UHGV virus genome: UHGV-0257029 | Direction: 5' to 3' (one strand) | DNA length: 14,896 bases | DNA from: a virus | Shown: piece after piece, positions 2,237 through 14,896 of the stretch | How positions within the stretch are numbered: the stretch's first letter is position 1 | Layout: the number at the start of each line of letters is the position of its first letter | Translations under genes and position numbers: made by a program | The notes under the pieces: model-generated | The model's input: only the letters and a program-made list of their open reading frames with translations | What the model was told of the DNA's origin: nothing | The model's database searches: none

Positions 2237-3124
2237 TCACTCCTGCGCCCATGAAGGCATTTCAGTTTGTCCGTAATCTTTGGTGGCAAAGTTTTCAGCC
2301 TTAAGTCCATTAGCAACCTTGCGTACCGGTCTGGATAACGCCTGCTTGTTCTGGTAGCTGAGTTTCTGGCTGGCAGTGATAAACCAGTTCTTTGGCTTCT
2401 CATGGCTAAATTCGATATCCAGCCTTTCCAGTTCGTAATTCAGGTCAATGTTCGGATACAGGCGCTTCCATGCTTCGTAGTCCTTGTGGTTTAACCGAAC
2501 GATATTTCCTTCGAAGGCATAGCGACTTGAAATTTTATGGACATCAGCCCCACCCCCTTCACAAGTCGCGTCAGCGGCTTGGGTGTTAGAAAGGGAATCA
2601 GGAATCAGGTTAAGGGAATCAGGAATCAGGTTAAGGGAATCAGCAGGATTTAAACTGTTCTCTACTGGTTCTTGCACTGTACTTGCATGGTGCTTTTCTG
2701 GTGCTTCATTGTTTTCAATGAACTGCAGTGATTCTACATCCTCCTTCTCTTCATCTTTATCGTCCTTGCACTGTACTTGCATGGTGCTGTTATTGTTCTC
2801 TACTGGTTCTGGTATCTCACTGGCAGCTTCTTTGCAGTGAGGGTTCTGGTGCTTTTTCCAGTTATTGATTTGGATATATGAGCCGCCATTTACCTGATAT
2901 CGGTTGATGAATTTGTGACTGTGAAGTTGCTGAAGCAGATCATTGCAGTCCACATCATCGAAAGGCAGTACCATTGCTTTAATTTTCTTTGGGCGATCAT
3001 CCAACCGCCCTTCTTTGTCAGCAATGGTCCATAACCCGGCAAAAAGGAGACGGGCATATGGAGAACACTCAGCTAATTCATCATTGGTGAAAAAGCCTGG
3101 TTTGATATTTCTTGAACGTGCCAT
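2237..3124 (-). CDS. Putative replication initiator / replisome organiser (not lambda O)
   Basis: Sits directly upstream of the DnaC-like gene in the lambda O position. Conserved-looking N-terminal domain (MARSRNIKPGFFTNDELAECSPYARLLFAGLWTIADKEGRL), acidic low-complexity linker encoded by DNA repeats, distinct C-terminal domain. ATG at 3124 with RBS aaggtgg. Confidence 0.5.
   Translation of the reverse strand: MARSRNIKPGFFTNDELAECSPYARLLFAGLWTIADKEGRLDDRPKKIKAMVLPFDDVDCNDLLQQLHSHKFINRYQVNGGSYIQINNWKKHQNPHCKEAASEIPEPVENNNSTMQVQCKDDKDEEKEDVESLQFIENNEAPEKHHASTVQEPVENSLNPADSLNLIPDSLNLIPDSLSNTQAADATCEGGGADVHKISSRYAFEGNIVRLNHKDYEAWKRLYPNIDLNYELERLDIEFSHEKPKNWFITASQKLSYQNKQALSRPVRKVANGLKAENFATKDYGQTEMPSWAQE
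2591..2644. repeat. 21-bp tandem repeat, about 2.5 copies (aagggaatcaggaatcaggtt), inside the initiator gene
   Basis: Read directly from the sequence; encodes the repeated peptide DSLNLIP on the minus strand. Confidence 0.85.
2656..2810. repeat. Two pairs of exact direct repeats (24 bp and 17 bp) flanking a moderately AT-rich spacer; iteron-like
   Basis: cttgcactgtacttgcatggtgct occurs at 2671..2694 and 2765..2788. tgttctctactggttct occurs at 2656..2672 and 2794..2810. Confidence 0.8.
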
Positions 3125-3135
3125 TTTGTCCACCT

Positions 3136-3936
3136 TTAGTACGGGAGTTCTTCCTGAGCTTCACGAATGCGTTCAGATACCCACTCCTTGAACGTTGTCC
3201 AGTTAGGTACTGTTTTCGCAAACTCAGTAAGTTCATCGAGATCTAAGTCGTATGAAAGCCATGCCTTGAGATAACTCATTACATGGTTTTGATTGATATA
3301 TATGCGGTTTTTAAGGATTCCTCTGATGTATAGAATCCTTTGTTCTTTTGGCGGTTTTCTTTTTGTCGCTGCTATGCGAGGGATGTACTCAAAGAATTCA
3401 CCAGTAAGCTCATGGGTTATTTCTTGGGTGAGTTTTTTGTCTGCGGCAATCTCAATCGCATCGAGGATTTCTTCAAGCTTATATATTCGAAGCCATCTCT
3501 TGATAGATTTTCGCCCATTGTCATTAACAGTAAATGGCGCAATGCAGTCGTCAATTTTGGTAGCGACAATATCAACAACATCGTCTTTCAGGCTCTTAAG
3601 ACCATCTCGCCACTTGATCATCATCTCCAGTTGCTCTCGCTTGGTATTAAGTTCCTGGAGTTGCTGCCTTTGCTTTTCCATTATTGAGTTATCGCTGAGC
3701 AGTTTGTCGCTTTTCCCGCCATTACAACTATCGCAAGAAGTAATAAGGTTCATCATGTCGTTATCGCCACCCTTGCTAACTGGGTTGATATGGTCGACAT
3801 GAAGGATGACGTCTGGCGCAGAACTCCCACAGTACTGGCATTTGAAGCCATCGCGCTTGAAAACCTCAAACCGTATTTTCTTGGTAATGCCGGAACGAAT
3901 CTTTTTTACTTGGTCTGGTGTAGGTTTTTTTGCCAT
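3136..3936 (-). CDS. HNH endonuclease domain protein
   Basis: HNH motif FKCQYCGSSAPDVILHVDHINPVSKGGDNDMMNLITSCDSCNGGK near the N-terminus. Start placed at the ATG at 3936 (RBS ggag 6 nt upstream) rather than the track start at 3948. Confidence 0.7.
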   Translation of the reverse strand: MAKKPTPDQVKKIRSGITKKIRFEVFKRDGFKCQYCGSSAPDVILHVDHINPVSKGGDNDMMNLITSCDSCNGGKSDKLLSDNSIMEKQRQQLQELNTKREQLEMMIKWRDGLKSLKDDVVDIVATKIDDCIAPFTVNDNGRKSIKRWLRIYKLEEILDAIEIAADKKLTQEITHELTGEFFEYIPRIAATKRKPPKEQRILYIRGILKNRIYINQNHVMSYLKAWLSYDLDLDELTEFAKTVPNWTTFKEWVSERIREAQEELPY

Positions 3937-3957
3937 AATTAACTCCATAGAAAGCAG

Positions 3958-4692: not shown

Positions 4693-5409
<717 letters not shown>

Positions 5410-5479: not shown

Positions 5480-6478
5480 TTGGAAATCAGCACGGCGGTT
5501 ATTCATTCCGAAGAAGATGCTTTGCGTTTTGTTGAGATGTACATCGCTGGGCAAGATCTTCCTGATGGAATATCATTTGAAGGGTGGCCTAACTTAACCT
5601 TCCGTCTTACTGGTGACAAATTTCATGGCAGTTTGACTCCTTCTGTCATGAAGGGTTTTGTTGAAATGCAGGCCCAAATAAACCGAGCTTATGCATTGTT
5701 AAAGTACGGAGTTCCTGACCCAAGAAAGCTTTCAAAAGAAGAGAAGGAAGCTATCGAAATTCAGGTGAATGTTGAGAATGGCTCGTCCTTGATAGAAGTT
5801 AATATGGATGGGTTCATGGGTGAGGTTATACAAACTGCGGTGAGTAAAGTGGGCCCTCAAGAGATCGTTATTACAGTTTTAGGGGTCGCTCTTATATGGG
5901 GCGGCGTCGTCCTATTCAAAAAATATCTAGAAGACCGCAAAGAGATTCGCATGGCAGAAGTAAAAAGCGAGTCTGAGCGTGAACACCTTGCGACCATGCG
6001 CTTCATGTCTGAGCAGGAAACAAAACGAAGTGAATTATTGACTCAGATTATTAGCGAAAAACCCAAGCTAGACAACATGGAAAGACTTGCTCATGACGCA
6101 AAAACCGACATAGTTAAATCATTTGTCAAGGCTGATACAGCTCAGATTGATGGCGTTGTATTGGATGCAGATCTATCCAAAACCCTCACTACAAATGCAA
6201 GGCGGAAATCAATGGAGATCCGCCTTGATGGAAATTATCGCATTGAAAAGGTTGACTCCACTGATCCAGAGAGCTTCAAAGTGCAAGTGAGAAATGTTGA
6301 CTCCGATCTAAGAATATCGTGCATAGTACAAGATGTATTTCTCGACGCATCCGAGCATAAAAAAGCTCTTCAGCAAGCTGAGTGGGATAGAAAACCAGTT
6401 CATTTGTCAATCAACGCAAAAGAACTAGATGGTGAAATAAAGTCCGCGATAATACTTTATGTCAAAGAGATAACATAA
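5480..6478 (+). CDS. Unknown 332-aa protein with one central predicted transmembrane helix, in the rexA/rexB position
   Basis: ORF on the cI strand between cI and OL. TTG start at 5480 with RBS agagg 8 nt upstream (alternative ATG at 5537). Hydrophobic segment IVITVLGVALIWGGVVLF near residues 131-148. No resemblance to RexA or RexB as recalled, and no kinase or nuclease motifs seen. Confidence 0.6.
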   Translation: MEISTAVIHSEEDALRFVEMYIAGQDLPDGISFEGWPNLTFRLTGDKFHGSLTPSVMKGFVEMQAQINRAYALLKYGVPDPRKLSKEEKEAIEIQVNVENGSSLIEVNMDGFMGEVIQTAVSKVGPQEIVITVLGVALIWGGVVLFKKYLEDRKEIRMAEVKSESEREHLATMRFMSEQETKRSELLTQIISEKPKLDNMERLAHDAKTDIVKSFVKADTAQIDGVVLDADLSKTLTTNARRKSMEIRLDGNYRIEKVDSTDPESFKVQVRNVDSDLRISCIVQDVFLDASEHKKALQQAEWDRKPVHLSINAKELDGEIKSAIILYVKEIT

Positions 6479-6809: not shown

Positions 6810-6937
6810 AATAACCAAAGTGAACTTTGGGGTGAATGCAGAGGCTAACCTTCTCGGCGGAGGCGCTTTGCAATGATTACGCGACCGGAGTTAGTCGCCC
6901 GGCTGTATTCACCACCAAAGTTCATCAGGAGGTCTAT

Positions 6938-7321
6938 ATGACACGCAGAACTCAGTTCAAAGGCAATTCACGTTCTCGTCGTCGTGAGCGTTTAAAGGCA
7001 AAGGCATTAGCTAACGGCGTACTGGCCCGCGAAGAAGCAATAAGTTCAGAAGTATTACACCGCCCTACTCTAAGCAGAGCGCAGATTCAGGCTAAAGGTA
7101 CTCACGAAACGCCTGAGCGCATAGAAGACGCTAAGCCAATTAAGTTCATGGCACAGGACGTGATCTGGCAACAGAAAGAATACAGACGCAATCTGGAGCG
7201 AGCGGCCATTGTGTACGCGAATGAGTTTGGACATAAGCAACCAGAAACTGGTGTATGTCTTCCAGATGTAGCTCTTTACGCAGCAGGATACCGGAAATCA
7301 AAACAACTGACGGCGAGATGA
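6938..7321 (+). CDS. N: N-type antiterminator (non-lambda N; arginine-rich motif)
   Basis: First gene downstream of pL/nutL. ATG at 6938 has a strong RBS aggagg; the 6836 track start would swallow nutL. N-terminal MTRRTQFKGNSRSRRRERLKAKA is an arginine-rich motif. Not the lambda N sequence as recalled; resembles N of Stx-type lambdoid phages from memory. Confidence 0.7.
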   Translation: MTRRTQFKGNSRSRRRERLKAKALANGVLAREEAISSEVLHRPTLSRAQIQAKGTHETPERIEDAKPIKFMAQDVIWQQKEYRRNLERAAIVYANEFGHKQPETGVCLPDVALYAAGYRKSKQLTAR

Positions 7322-7379: not shown

Positions 7380-7466
7380 ATGGAAGAAGAATTTGAAGAG
7401 TTCGAAGAGCATCCGCAGGATGTAATGGAACAGTACCAGGACTATCCGTATGACTACGACTATTGA
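7380..7466 (+). CDS. Candidate 28-aa highly acidic micro-ORF
   Basis: ATG at 7380 preceded by gaggtgag. Translation MEEEFEEFEEHPQDVMEQYQDYPYDYDY. Overlaps the ral start by 17 nt. Below the ORF-track cutoff. Confidence 0.2.
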   Translation: MEEEFEEFEEHPQDVMEQYQDYPYDYDY

Positions 7467-7650
7467 TAAGAATCAATGGTGTGGACAATTCAAGCGATGC
7501 AATGGATGCAAGCTGCAATCGGAATGCATGGTTAAGCCTGAAGAAATGTTTCCTGTAATGGAGGATGGGAAATATGTCGATAAATGGGCAATACGAACGA
7601 CGGCAATGATTGCCAGAGAACTTGACAAACAGAACAACAAGGCTGCCTGA
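7450..7650 (+). CDS. ral: Ral (restriction alleviation) protein
   Basis: 66-aa translation MTTTIDKNQWCGQFKRCNGCKLQSEC... matches lambda Ral as recalled; four-Cys cluster. Confidence 0.75.
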   Translation: MTTTIDKNQWCGQFKRCNGCKLQSECMVKPEEMFPVMEDGKYVDKWAIRTTAMIARELDKQNNKAA

Positions 7651-7786: not shown

Positions 7787-7811
7787 GCCCTCCTATGTGA
7801 GGGCCTTTTTA
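7787..7811 (+). terminator. Intrinsic terminator upstream of cIII
   Basis: gccctc-ctatgt-gagggc followed by cttttt; presumably read through under N antitermination. Confidence 0.6.
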
Positions 7812-7872
7812 TATGCATACCAATAACGCTTCATTCGAGGCGTTTTCGTTATGTATAAATAAGGAGCACACC

Positions 7873-8013
7873 ATGCAATATGCCATTGCAGGGTGGCCTG
7901 TTGCTGGCTGCCCTTCCGAATCTTTACTTGAACGAATCACACGTAAATTACGTGATGGATGGAAACGCCTTATCGACATACTTAATCAGCCAGGAGTTCC
8001 CAAAAATGGATAA
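7873..8013 (+). CDS. cIII: CIII (FtsH/HflB inhibitor), shorter C-terminus than lambda
   Basis: MQYAIAGWPVAGCPSESLLERITRKLRDGWKRLIDILNQPGVPKNG matches lambda CIII as recalled except for the truncated C-terminus. RBS aaggag 6 nt upstream of the ATG at 7873; the track start at 7813 lacks an RBS. Confidence 0.85.
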   Translation: MQYAIAGWPVAGCPSESLLERITRKLRDGWKRLIDILNQPGVPKNG

Positions 8014-8119
8014 AACACTTATGGCTATCCAGACTAAATTCACTATCGCCACTTTTATTGGCGATGAAAAGATGTTTCGTGAAGCCGTAGAAGCCTACAG
8101 AAAATGGAGGTCAAAATGA
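8006..8119 (+). CDS. kil: Kil-like host-killing / FtsZ-inhibiting small protein
   Basis: MDKTLMAIQTKFTIATFIGDEKMFREAV... resembles lambda Kil as recalled. ATG overlaps the cIII 3' end. Confidence 0.7.
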   Translation: MDKTLMAIQTKFTIATFIGDEKMFREAVEAYRKWRSK

Positions 8120-8304
8120 TTCCGGTAGAACTGGCGAAAACTCCAGAGTTAAGTCGATTAAAAAGAGAATATCACATTGCTGAGGCTCGTTACTGGCGTA
8201 AAGCGGGAGATAAATCAAAGAAACAACTTTGTTTATGGCAGGCGCAAAGAGAGCGCATGAATGAGCGCGAATTTCTTTCCTGCCCATCCGAATTACCATT
8301 CTGA
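8116..8304 (+). CDS. Hypothetical 62-aa protein in the gam position (not Gam-like)
   Basis: ATG at 8116 overlaps the kil stop (ATGA) and has RBS ggagg. Basic protein MIPVELAKTPELSRLKREYH... Confidence 0.45.
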   Translation: MIPVELAKTPELSRLKREYHIAEARYWRKAGDKSKKQLCLWQAQRERMNEREFLSCPSELPF

Positions 8305-8312
8305 GGCAAATT

Positions 8313-8993
8313 ATGGGAACTGCGACATTAATACTCGGTGAATCTGGCACCGGAAAATCAACCAGCATGAGAAATATCAATCCAGAGGAAGCAATACTTA
8401 TAAAACCAATAGGCAAGCCGCTACCATTTAAATCAAAAGACTGGCTTGCATGGGATGCCAGAGCAAAAAAAGGAACCGTAGTTACCACTGACAAATGGGA
8501 CGTAATAGTTGCTGCAATTAAGCGTGCTCACGAATACGGAAAAAGAATCGTTATTGTTGATGACTTCCAGTATGTGATGAGCAATGAGTTTATGCGCCGC
8601 TCAGAAGAAAAATCGTTTGATAAATTTACTGAGATAGGCCGCCACGCATGGGAGGTGATTAAGGCTGCACAGGATGCACCTGATGACCTGAGAGTCTATT
8701 TTCTTGCACATACCGAAGAAACCCCTATGGGGCGCGTGAAAATGAAAACTATCGGCAAAATGCTGGACGAGAAAATCACTGTCGAAGGCATGTTTACTAT
8801 AGTTCTTCGCACTCTTACCCGCGATGACCAGTTCTTTTTCACCACGAAAAACAACGGTGCAGACACTGTCAAATCCCCAATGGGAATGTTTGATTCCAAT
8901 GAGATTGATAACGATCTCTCTTTCGTCGATGCCACTGTTTGTGATTACTACGGCATCAATAATGTTCATCAAATTAAGGAAAACGCCGCATGA
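8313..8993 (+). CDS. Sak4-like RecA-fold P-loop ATPase (putative phage recombinase)
   Basis: 226 aa with Walker A GESGTGKS at the N-terminus and Walker B-like IVIVDD. Occupies the bet/exo position of the early-left operon; size and motif layout fit the Sak4 / AAA_24 family from memory. Confidence 0.55.
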   Translation: MGTATLILGESGTGKSTSMRNINPEEAILIKPIGKPLPFKSKDWLAWDARAKKGTVVTTDKWDVIVAAIKRAHEYGKRIVIVDDFQYVMSNEFMRRSEEKSFDKFTEIGRHAWEVIKAAQDAPDDLRVYFLAHTEETPMGRVKMKTIGKMLDEKITVEGMFTIVLRTLTRDDQFFFTTKNNGADTVKSPMGMFDSNEIDNDLSFVDATVCDYYGINNVHQIKENAA

Positions 8994-9577
8994 GCAACGT
9001 GATTTTTACTTATAACGAAGAAGCAGCACTGACCGCAGGGCAAGGTGGTTTTATTAACGAAACTGGCGCCCATATCATTACCATTACTGAAGCAGAACTA
9101 AAGCAATCAGAAAAAGGAGCCAAATTTATTGAGTTTTCTGGAGAATCCGACGACGGCCGTAAAATCCAATATCTTAGCGTCTGTGTTCAGAAAAATGACG
9201 GAACGGAAAACAAATTTGGCGCAAATGTCGTTCACGCCATGATGGGGTGTGCTGGGATTGGACAATTAACGCAGCATATGGCTTCCGCCAGTAAATTTGT
9301 TGCACCTGAATTTCATGGAAAGAAAATCGGGTTAGTGCTCCAGAAAGTATTAACCACAAACAAAAAGACTGGCGCAGACAGCTACCAGATGGAAATACGC
9401 ATCCCGTTTATTGCACAAACAGGTCAAACCCTTAAAGAAAAGGCGGAAGGCAAGCAACCAGAAACTATCGCCAACATGGTTGCCAGCCTCAAAGATAAAG
9501 ACAATCGCTCTAAAAACGTAAGCCATAATCATGCAGATGATTATGGTTACAGCCAGAACGATTACCCTCCTTTCTGA
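8990..9577 (+). CDS. Putative phage ssDNA-binding protein partnering the Sak4-like ATPase
   Basis: 195-aa ORF whose start overlaps the ATPase stop (ATGA). Acidic/aromatic C-terminal tail ...HADDYGYSQNDYPPF is reminiscent of SSB tails. Assignment from gene context and tail only. Confidence 0.35.
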   Translation: MSNVIFTYNEEAALTAGQGGFINETGAHIITITEAELKQSEKGAKFIEFSGESDDGRKIQYLSVCVQKNDGTENKFGANVVHAMMGCAGIGQLTQHMASASKFVAPEFHGKKIGLVLQKVLTTNKKTGADSYQMEIRIPFIAQTGQTLKEKAEGKQPETIANMVASLKDKDNRSKNVSHNHADDYGYSQNDYPPF

Positions 9578-9600
9578 TTATTGAAAATAAGGCTCCCATT

Positions 9601-9897
9601 ATGCCAGCGCCTCTGTATGGTGCGGATGACCCGCGCAATTGCTCCGGTAGCTCCAAGGCGGAGGTGCTGGAAAATATCAAAAACAATTTCGACGCGTTTC
9701 TTGCTCTGACACCAGAAACAAAAGCAGAACGGATGTACCGACGCGATATACAACTCGCGCTAAAACAGGAGAAGGACCGAACAAACGAAACAGCAATGAG
9801 ACCGTTGCGAAAAGCGACAATAGACAAATTCCCTGAATATATCGACCCGCGCCTGCGTAATTACCGCTCACGCTATGGCGCTATCAGTAATGACTGA
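9601..9897 (+). CDS. Hypothetical protein, 98 aa
   Basis: ORF in the co-directional accessory block; no recognisable motif. Confidence 0.45.
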
Positions 9898-9907
9898 GGA
9901 ATTTACC

Positions 9908-10072
9908 ATGAGAGGACTTGCATACAATCCCGGCATTCTTCCGGCAGAAATGATTATTCGCCAACGCGTAAAGCCAATGCCATCGAGAGAGGAATTGCTT
10001 AAGAGAAATTCTTTTCCATCAGTGAATCAAAACAAATATCTGAATGCGATGTTGCGGAGTGGGAAGAAATGA
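9908..10072 (+). CDS. Hypothetical protein, 54 aa
   Basis: ATG at 9908 preceded by gagga; the track ORF begins at 9875, but that start overlaps the preceding gene without an RBS. Confidence 0.35.
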
Positions 10073-10518
10073 AACAAATGTCACTAATTGAGATGGATGG
10101 ATTTCTTAAAGGTAAATGCATCCCACGAGATTTAAAGGTTAACGAAACAAACGCTGAATATCTGGTGCGTAAGTTCGGTGAACTTGAATCAAAACTGGAA
10201 ACGGCGTTGCGGGAGTGTCGTTCTGCTGGAATCACGATTGATAACCTTGAGGATAAATGCGCGAAGATGGCTGCTGAAAATACCTCGCTTAAGCAATCTG
10301 AGAAGGAATTTAATGACTTTTGTCGTGAGGAGTTTAGCGAATGGGAAGATGATGTTACTGAAACCCCAGCCACCGACGCCTCCCTTGCTGAAGTGCGGGC
10401 GCAGGGCGTGGAGATGGCTATGGAGCATATGCAGTCGAGCGGTTCGTTAACATTTGGAGATTGCTACATATCACTTAACGAGTTCGCCGCAGAGCTTCGC
10501 AAAGGAGGTAACCAGTGA
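10069..10518 (+). CDS. Hypothetical coiled-coil protein, 149 aa
   Basis: ATGA overlap with the upstream ORF; acidic central region with heptad-like pattern. Confidence 0.5.
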
Positions 10519-13629: not shown

Positions 13630-13848
13630 ATGTACTTGACACTTCAGGAGTGGAACGCACGCCAGCGACGCCCAAGAAGCCTTGAAACAGTTCGTCGATG
13701 GGTACGCGAGTGCAGGATATTCCCTCCTCCGGTTAAGGATGGAAGAGAGTATCTGTTCCACGAATCAGCGGTAAAGGTTGACTTAAATCGACCAGTAACA
13801 GGTAGCCTTTTGAAGAGGATCAAAAATGGGAAGAAGGCGAAGTCATGA
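13630..13848 (+). CDS. xis: Excisionase Xis
   Basis: 72-aa translation MYLTLQEWNARQRRPRSLETVRRWVRECRIFPPPVKDGREYLFHESAVKVDLNRPVTG.LLKRI.NGKKAKS matches lambda Xis as recalled; 3' end overlaps the int start. Confidence 0.9.
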   Translation: MYLTLQEWNARQRRPRSLETVRRWVRECRIFPPPVKDGREYLFHESAVKVDLNRPVTGSLLKRIKNGKKAKS

Positions 13849-14896
13849 GCGCCGGGATTTACCCCCTAATCTTTATATAAGAAACAATGGATATTACTGC
13901 TACAGGGACCCAAGGACGGGTAAAGAGTTTGGATTAGGCCGAGACAGGAGGATAGCAATCACTGAAGCTATACAGGCCAACATTGAGTTATTTTCAGGAC
14001 ACAAACACAAGCCTCTGACAGCGAGAATCAACAGTGATAATTCCGTTACGTTACATTCATGGCTTGATCGCTACGAAAAAATCCTCGCCAACAGAGGAAT
14101 CAAGCAGAAGACACTCATAAATTACATGAGCAAAATTAAAGCAATAAGGAGGGGTCTGCCTGATGCTCCACTTGAAGACATCACCACAAAAGAAATTGCA
14201 GCAATGCTCAATGGATACATAGACGAGGGCAAGGCGGCGTCAGCCAAGTTAATCAGATCAACACTGAGCGATGCATTCCGAGAGGCAATAGCTGAAGGCC
14301 ATATAACAACAAACCCGGTCGCTGCCACTCGCGCAGCAAAATCAGAGGTAAGGAGATCAAGACTTACGGCTGACGAATACCTGAAAATTTATCAAGCAGC
14401 AGAATCATCACCATGTTGGCTCAGACTTGCAATGGAACTGGCTGTTGTTACCGGGCAGAGAGTTGGTGATTTATGCGAAATGAAGTGGTCTGATATCGTA
14501 GATGGATATCTTTATGTCGAGCAAAGCAAAACAGGCGTAAAAATTGCCATCCCTACAACATTGCATGTTGATGCTCTCGGGATGTCAATGAAGGAAACAC
14601 TTGGTAAATGCAAAGAGATTCTTGGCGGAGAAACCATAATTGCATCTACTCGTCGTGAACCGCTTTCATCCGGCACAGTATCAAGGTATTTTATGCGCGC
14701 ACGAAAAGCATCAGGTCTTTCCTTCGAAGGGGATCCGCCAACCTTTCACGAGTTGCGCAGTTTGTCTGCAAGACTCTATGAGAAGCAGATAAGCGATAAA
14801 TTTGCTCAACATCTTCTCGGGCATAAGTCGGACACCATGGCATCACAGTATCGTGATGACAGAGGCAGGGAGTGGGACAAAATTGAAATCAAATAA
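13826..14896 (+). CDS. int: Tyrosine integrase Int (lambda type)
   Basis: 356-aa translation matches lambda Int as recalled, including the catalytic region (...HELRSL...HLLGH...Y). The gene ends exactly at the window edge, so attP/attL is outside the window. Confidence 0.95.
   Translation: MGRRRSHERRDLPPNLYIRNNGYYCYRDPRTGKEFGLGRDRRIAITEAIQANIELFSGHKHKPLTARINSDNSVTLHSWLDRYEKILANRGIKQKTLINYMSKIKAIRRGLPDAPLEDITTKEIAAMLNGYIDEGKAASAKLIRSTLSDAFREAIAEGHITTNPVAATRAAKSEVRRSRLTADEYLKIYQAAESSPCWLRLAMELAVVTGQRVGDLCEMKWSDIVDGYLYVEQSKTGVKIAIPTTLHVDALGMSMKETLGKCKEILGGETIIASTRREPLSSGTVSRYFMRARKASGLSFEGDPPTFHELRSLSARLYEKQISDKFAQHLLGHKSDTMASQYRDDRGREWDKIEIK

Follow-up and report, generated by a model that had tools for sequence, protein, structure and literature searches.

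The virus genome UHGV-0257029, represented here by a stretch of 14,896 nucleotides (the window), carries a four-gene recombination (Rec) module on its plus strand, immediately downstream of cIII and kil, that closely resembles the module of coliphage HK620. A scan for open reading frames (ORFs) finds three consecutive plus-strand ORFs of 62, 226 and 195 amino acids: hkaM (8116..8304), the first gene of the module; sak4 (8313..8993; hkaL in HK620), encoding a RecA-like ATPase reduced to its core; and ssb (8990..9577; hkaK in HK620), encoding an unusual single-stranded DNA-binding protein (SSB) of the DUF669 or N4 gp45-like kind. They are followed by abc2 (9601..9897), a divergent allele of the gene for the 98-residue anti-RecBCD protein 2. 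The genes are tightly packed, with the start of hkaM at 8116 and the end of kil sharing an ATGA (8116-8119) and the start of ssb lying within the stop of sak4 in a second, 4-base-pair (bp) ATGA at 8990-8993. A preliminary description made from the sequence alone had singled out the 62-residue ORF, the 226-residue P-loop protein with its GESGTGKS and IVIVDD motifs and the overlapping 195-residue ORF, and all of these are present on the plus strand at the positions it gave; abc2 begins just past the end coordinate of that description and went unnoticed in it.

The order of the genes, their overlaps and their lengths are those of HK620 (AF335538), in which hkaM has 189 nucleotides, hkaL 681, hkaK 588 and hkaJ/abc2 297. 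The products are identical to their HK620 counterparts at 61 of 62 residues for HkaM (98%), 224 of 226 for Sak4 (99%) and 192 of 195 for SSB (98%), and this identity to annotated genes, with the purifying selection on hkaM described below, shows that the ORFs did not arise by chance. In Pfam and PHROGs searches of the ORFs scanned from N (6836) to int (13826), nothing matched exo, bet or gam, and no scanned ORF matched a nuclease family. The proposal of the preliminary description that Red had been replaced here by a Sak4-type annealase and an SSB, with no exonuclease adjacent, thus holds on both counts. We consider it highly probable (about 0.94), given this similarity, that in this region a lambdoid prophage or phage carries an HK620-type Sak4-SSB Rec module. 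The window differs from HK620 in its Abc2 allele and in the surrounding immunity, replication and integration genes, as is ordinary in lambdoid mosaicism, while the Walker motifs of Sak4 and the NDYPPF tail of SSB are unchanged.

The module is already known, experimentally studied and widespread. It was described in HK620 by Clark et al. 2001 and Lopes et al. 2010 (both as cited in PMC5928155) and by Hutinet et al. 2018 (PMC5928155), who renamed HkaL as Sak4 and HkaK as SSB-HK620, and a 2025 survey of lambdoid Rec modules lists it as a recognised nuclease-free type (PMC12315714). The 2.3 kilobases from 7800 to 10100 match 405 phage records, 65 of which cover at least 80% of the stretch; the best match is phage JEP4, at 98.1%, and many of the matching records are Stx1a- or Stx2a-converting phages. 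The 1,462 bp from 8116 to 9577 are 100% identical to a prophage in Escherichia coli MS 196-1, and at least 80% of their length is found in 179 of 5,426 complete E. coli genomes. In RefSeq and GenBank such copies are labelled 'ATP-binding protein', 'DNA binding ATPase', 'DUF669 domain-containing protein' or 'hypothetical protein'.

The 226-residue protein belongs to the Sak4 family. Its N-terminus reads MGTATLILGESGTGKST and it contains the segment RIVIVDDF; its P-loop core has both a Walker A motif (GESGTGKS, residues 9-16) and a Walker B motif (IVIVDD, residues 79-84). It matches PHROG 2872, 'Sak4-like ssDNA annealing protein' (where ssDNA stands for single-stranded DNA), over its full length with E = 5.3e-108, and Pfam AAA_24 over residues 5-169 at 30.4 bits against a cut-off of 27; AAA_22 scores just under its own cut-off. 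The two residues that differ from HkaL, 43 and 68, lie outside both Walker motifs. Its relatives include proteins of Hafnia, Acinetobacter and Pseudomonas phages (71%, 56% and 52% identity respectively) and, more distantly at about 30%, proteins of Vibrio, Fusobacterium and crAss-like phages; a sequence search found no solved structure that matches it. In HK620 the homology of Sak4 is restricted to the RecA core, RecA's C-terminal DNA-binding domain being absent, and the purified activity consists of ssDNA binding and ATP-dependent annealing of complementary strands, although the protein alone is a poor annealase (PMC5928155). With 2 of 226 residues separating the two proteins, Sak4 of the window is predicted by homology to be an ATP-dependent ssDNA-binding single-strand annealase.

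An ssb gene adjoins sak4 in the window, as one does beside about 80% of sak4 genes (PMC5928155). The SSB ends in HADDYGYSQNDYPPF, its terminal hexapeptide, NDYPPF (within SQNDYPPF), being the same as that of HK620, and the three residues that differ from HkaK (98, 153 and 179) all lie outside this hexapeptide. The HK620 protein is a genuine SSB, a distant relative of gp45 of phage N4 for which HHpred gave no direct link to the SSB of E. coli, and deletion of its NDYPPF lowers recombineering 10-fold and abolishes the binding of Sak4 to SSB-coated ssDNA (PMC5928155). At 98% identity to that protein, the 195-residue product of the window is predicted by homology to bind ssDNA; it matches PHROG 743, 'single strand DNA binding protein', with E = 2.5e-65, and no solved structure was found for it by sequence search. 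In oligonucleotide recombineering sak4 alone gave a 15-fold gain over the empty vector, while the whole HK620 module gave 210-fold over spontaneous annealing and was fully equalled by sak4 and ssb alone (PMC5928155). The need of Sak4 for a cognate SSB, as given in the preliminary description, is confirmed by published work. By analogy with these 98-99% identical proteins, of which the SSB raises annealing by Sak4 in vitro, the phage SSB of the window would coat ssDNA and recruit Sak4 through NDYPPF.

The fourth protein, Abc2, is a full-length member of PF11043 (Anti-RecBCD_p2; E = 1.5e-35, 121.7 bits against a cut-off of 25), matches PHROG 656 'abc2 anti-RecBCD' with E = 5e-45, and is the only one of Sak4, SSB and Abc2 to match a solved structure, that of P22 Abc2 (PDB 8b1t, E = 3.7e-32). 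Neither the HK620 nor the P22 module encodes a nuclease, and Abc2 binds RecC, blocks activation at Chi and redirects the host RecBCD (PMC5928155, PMC12315714); its addition had no effect in the oligonucleotide recombineering assay (PMC5928155). By analogy with P22, Abc2 of the window would sit on RecC and block the response of RecBCD to Chi, the host enzyme then supplying the end resection that otherwise comes from lambda Exo. The lack of a nuclease in the module would accordingly reflect the takeover of host RecBCD by Abc2. Chi sites themselves are uninformative in the window, where none occurs and 0.36 are expected. A DUF2737 gene (PF10930, E = 6.5e-32) lies directly 3' of abc2 at 9875-10072, and the same neighbour is found in P22 (orf56), ST160 and two of the contigs compared below (L013 and L015), conserved beside the Rec module. 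The identity to HK620 drops from 98-99% across hkaM, sak4 and ssb to 61% in abc2, placing a mosaic boundary between ssb and abc2; in JEP4 and many Stx phages the corresponding region is about 98% identical over this part of the genome, abc2 included.

Two observations weigh against reading the region as the HK620 module. Abc2 is identical to HkaJ at only 60 of 98 residues (61%), and its equivalence to P22 Abc2 is accordingly predicted from family membership. In addition, a single-sequence hmmscan of the SSB against Pfam-A gave no match to DUF669 at E <= 10, so that of the profile checks that had been suggested, the one against AAA_24 and Sak4 succeeded and the one against DUF669 failed, the SSB family being matched through PHROG 743 instead. 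The HK620 SSB has been placed in DUF669 (PMC5928155), and RefSeq labels some near-identical copies of the window protein 'DUF669 domain-containing protein'; we therefore regard a single-sequence match to this profile as borderline at best and its lack as an issue of sensitivity, not a contradiction, and we base the identity of the SSB on PHROG 743 and on its likeness to HK620. Among the tests of the HK620 assignment the DUF669 profile alone had a negative outcome, and nothing contradicts the assignment. NCBIfam was of no help with the four proteins.

HkaM, the conserved accessory protein that heads the module, matches PHROG 1723, whose label is only 'recombinase', with E = 3e-33, and has no Pfam hit at E <= 10. 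A longer reading of 66 residues from an ATG at 8104 was rejected, since the homologues all begin MIPV..., a GGAGG lies 6 nucleotides 5' of 8116, and the start at 8116 forms the ATGA overlap with kil. Compared with the Salmonella version, hkaM shows a nonsynonymous divergence (dN) of 0.23 with synonymous divergence (dS) saturated, and 18, 9 and 37 differences at codon positions 1, 2 and 3, a pattern which indicates that it is a real gene under purifying selection. The family is small and enterobacterial: searching 5.8 billion proteins yielded 19 clusters, and scanning 1.84 billion representatives with a profile yielded 21 hits. In an AlphaFold2 model residues 10-30 and 33-49 form helices with a predicted local distance difference test (pLDDT) score of about 87-94, and the tail, residues 50-62, is of low confidence; a Foldseek search of the PDB found generic helical hairpins only (best E = 3.9) and is uninformative. 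HkaM has been described as an orphan unrelated to P22 Arf (PMC5928155), and we likewise rejected Arf as a member of the family, its sequence being unrelated and ending in ...DEFAGYYS. The record of Salmonella phage GE_vB_TR was discarded as unverified and frameshifted in this region. A literature search on 'hkaM' returned unrelated hits only, and one on SSB-tail mimics in phages returned nothing pertinent.

What distinguishes the family is its position. In the window and in eight further loci (L003, L004, L005, L009, L010, L012, L013 and L014), an hkaM-family gene stands directly 5' of the annealase gene irrespective of the family to which the annealase belongs. The gene that follows it encodes Sak4 (PHROG 2872) in the window and HK620, a 287-290-residue AAA_24 protein (PHROG 1366/124) in contigs L010 and L013, and Erf in phages L, ST160 and ES18 and contigs L012 and L014, while in contig L009 an HNH gene comes between it and Erf. 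The AAA_24 protein of L013 has no significant similarity to Sak4 of the window by BLASTP (E = 0.077), and one identical 60-residue protein (P0012) stands before Erf in L009 and L012 and before the AAA_24 gene in L010. The upstream neighbours of these genes vary, and the SSB partner in their modules is of DUF669 type, of bacterial type or absent. Abc2 accompanies most of them, being found in the window and HK620, phage L, ST160, ES18, L010 (as a weak Pfam hit), L013 and L014. Some modules led by hkaM also carry a DEDD-type (Rv2179c-like) exonuclease gene right after the SSB gene (L013 3913-4464, a PHROG 255 member, and L012 2484-3020), so that relatives of this module type do encode a nuclease of their own, unlike the window. 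In the prophage contig L015, residues 1-39 of HkaM run in frame into the C-terminal half of Abc2 (3001-3264, P0009); sak4 and ssb have been cleanly deleted from between them, and the junction falls in a short segment over which the two proteins resemble each other (LCLW / HCIW).

The second distinguishing feature is the C-terminus. An alignment of 16 full-length members, down to 34% identity, contains seven invariant columns, two of which are the C-terminal Pro-Phe, and all 16 proteins end in this dipeptide: ...SELPF in the window (an ELPF tip), and ...GDELPF, ...GNDLPF, ...DDGKIPF, ...GEPPF and similar endings elsewhere. The SSBs of the same modules end in ...DDEIPF, ...DDDIPF or ...DDSIPF, and those of the HK620 type in ...NDYPPF, so that HkaM carries a terminus of the SSB C-terminal type, acidic, then aliphatic or Pro, then Pro-Phe, on a flexible tail. 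Two phage-encoded SSBs of bacterial type depart from this form, ending in ...RHAIHSI or ...RHSIHAI instead of in the canonical ...DIPF of the E. coli type (L009 5284-5808 and L013 3400-3903), and HkaM keeps its Pro-Phe ending in the modules of both contigs.

On the strength of these features and of the structural model we put forward a speculative proposal, to which we give only a minor chance of being correct: that HkaM belongs to a hitherto undescribed family of Rec-module 'leader' proteins, in which a basic two-helix hairpin carries an SSB-like Pro-Phe tail tip. Such a protein would fill the pocket for the SSB tail on a host protein that interacts with SSB, such as exonuclease I, RecJ, RecQ, RecO or PriA, or alternatively would bind the phage annealase; in either case the 3' ssDNA tails that Abc2-modified RecBCD generates would be shielded or channelled by it. 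The occurrence of HkaM before unrelated annealases points to a host factor common to the modules, or to the SSB system, as a likelier partner than any given annealase. If this is true, HkaM would be a functional counterpart of P22 Arf that arrives at the same end by a different route.

The preliminary description had instead suggested that the 62-residue ORF, standing where lambda has gam, might inhibit RecBCD or some other host nuclease. HkaM does head the Rec module as gam does in lambda, it is kept by purifying selection, it is found with an annealase module in every case, and small phage proteins of this region often inhibit host enzymes. We nevertheless think a Gam-like role improbable. 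The protein has no likeness in sequence or fold to Gam, GamL or MuGam, and most of the modules that it heads carry Abc2, which needs an active RecBCD, so that a full inhibitor of RecBCD would oppose the neighbouring gene product; the presence of Abc2 also makes a Gam-like role for this ORF unnecessary. HkaM added nothing to oligonucleotide recombineering (PMC5928155), a weaker point in that this assay is independent of RecBCD. The proposed SSB-like tip speaks neither for nor against the looser phrase 'host-nuclease inhibitor', and we retain the description of HkaM as a conserved accessory protein of the module.

Doubt could also be directed at the annealase, since a 226-residue P-loop protein might be a general ATPase of replication, transport or the kinases, paired only incidentally with the 195-residue gene; its generic Pfam hits are indeed weak, and database labels such as 'DNA binding ATPase' or 'ATP-binding protein' would fit such a protein. 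This reading is refuted in practice, and we give it almost no weight, since the protein is 99% identical to one proven in ATP-dependent annealing and in recombineering (PMC5928155), groups by its PHROG 2872 match with Sak4, and is encoded in the lambdoid annealase slot between hkaM and abc2 that Erf fills in related phages. Nor do we find it at all likely that the module is a decaying, non-functional remnant in a cryptic prophage. The window is mosaic, no complete E. coli genome matching over 67% of it at any single site, and deletions of sak4 and ssb occur naturally, as L015 shows; yet all four ORFs are full length, copies that are 98-100% identical occur in viable phages (JEP4, HK620, HK629 and Stx phages), the coupled start and stop junctions are intact, and the neighbouring cI, N, cII, xis and int are intact ORFs. 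With its ORFs intact, its junctions translationally coupled and its likeness to HK620 close to identity, the copy of the HK620-type module in the window is predicted to be expressed and active.

Set beside other systems, the module occupies the same operon position as lambda Red and would have the same role, single-strand annealing recombination with RecBCD neutralised, but all three of gam, bet and exo are replaced. Its annealase would need ATP and depend on an SSB, its RecBCD would be modified by Abc2 instead of blocked by Gam, and it has no phage exonuclease. The arf, erf, abc1 and abc2 genes of P22 lie at the same site, between kil and the ea genes, include a homologous Abc2, and follow the same logic of an annealase with accessory proteins and Abc2 and no nuclease of their own (PMC12315714). 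The P22 annealase, however, is the Rad52-like Erf, whereas that of the window is a RecA-like ATPase, and neither Arf nor Abc1 has any sequence relationship to HkaM or the SSB (PMC5928155). HkaM homologues head Erf modules in ST64T and phage L (orf66) and in ES18 (gp50), where they are 66-68% identical to HkaM, share its PSELPF ending and are encoded, as hkaM is, directly after kil and directly 5' of the annealase; there, erf follows in place of sak4, with Abc1 or an SSB of bacterial type as partner and not one of DUF669 type.

The remainder of the window has a typical lambdoid layout. Upstream of the module N (6836-7321) is followed by Ral (7450-7650), and then by cIII (7873..8013), a short form as in HK620 and at the same position as there (PF02061 Lambda_CIII, E = 9.4e-31), and by kil (8006..8119), of 37 residues (PF06301 Lambda_Kil, E = 8.4e-22), the last two on the plus strand. 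Just 5' of cIII lie two terminator-like hairpins, at 7787-7804 and 7825-7844, which match the tL2 terminators annotated in HK620. Between 7300 and 10200 no sigma-70-like promoter site was found, against 6.2 expected from shuffled sequences, and this, with the hairpins before cIII, is consistent with a single antiterminated transcript from pL. The genes cIII, kil, hkaM, sak4, ssb and abc2, in that order, would belong to an early-left operon transcribed from pL. On the minus strand are the early-right genes, namely cII, an HNH endonuclease gene, a replication initiator, a DnaC-like loader and a Ren-like protein; cI lies at 4696-5409, and xis (13630-13848) and a lambda-type integrase gene, int (13826-14896), close the right end. 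The 270-residue HNH ORF (3136-3948, minus strand), between cII and the replication initiator, matches PHROG 16986 and many HNH families and appears to be a homing-type endonuclease inserted there; in L009, too, an HNH gene is inserted, between hkaM and erf. Between cI and N, a position at which exclusion or defence cargo is common in lambdoid phages, is a 332-residue ORF (5480-6478) that matches PHROG 6191 and has no Pfam hit.

A further copy of a module already characterised adds little in itself. The published names would better annotate hundreds of E. coli and Stx prophages. The position of HkaM and its Pro-Phe pattern are a modest new lead, from which follows a concrete hypothesis, open to test, on an orphan gene of a well-studied phage. 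The module illustrates how a minimal RecA-like ATPase, paired with an SSB of its own, can stand in for a Rad52-type annealase, and how Abc2 lets phages borrow RecBCD instead of carrying an exonuclease.

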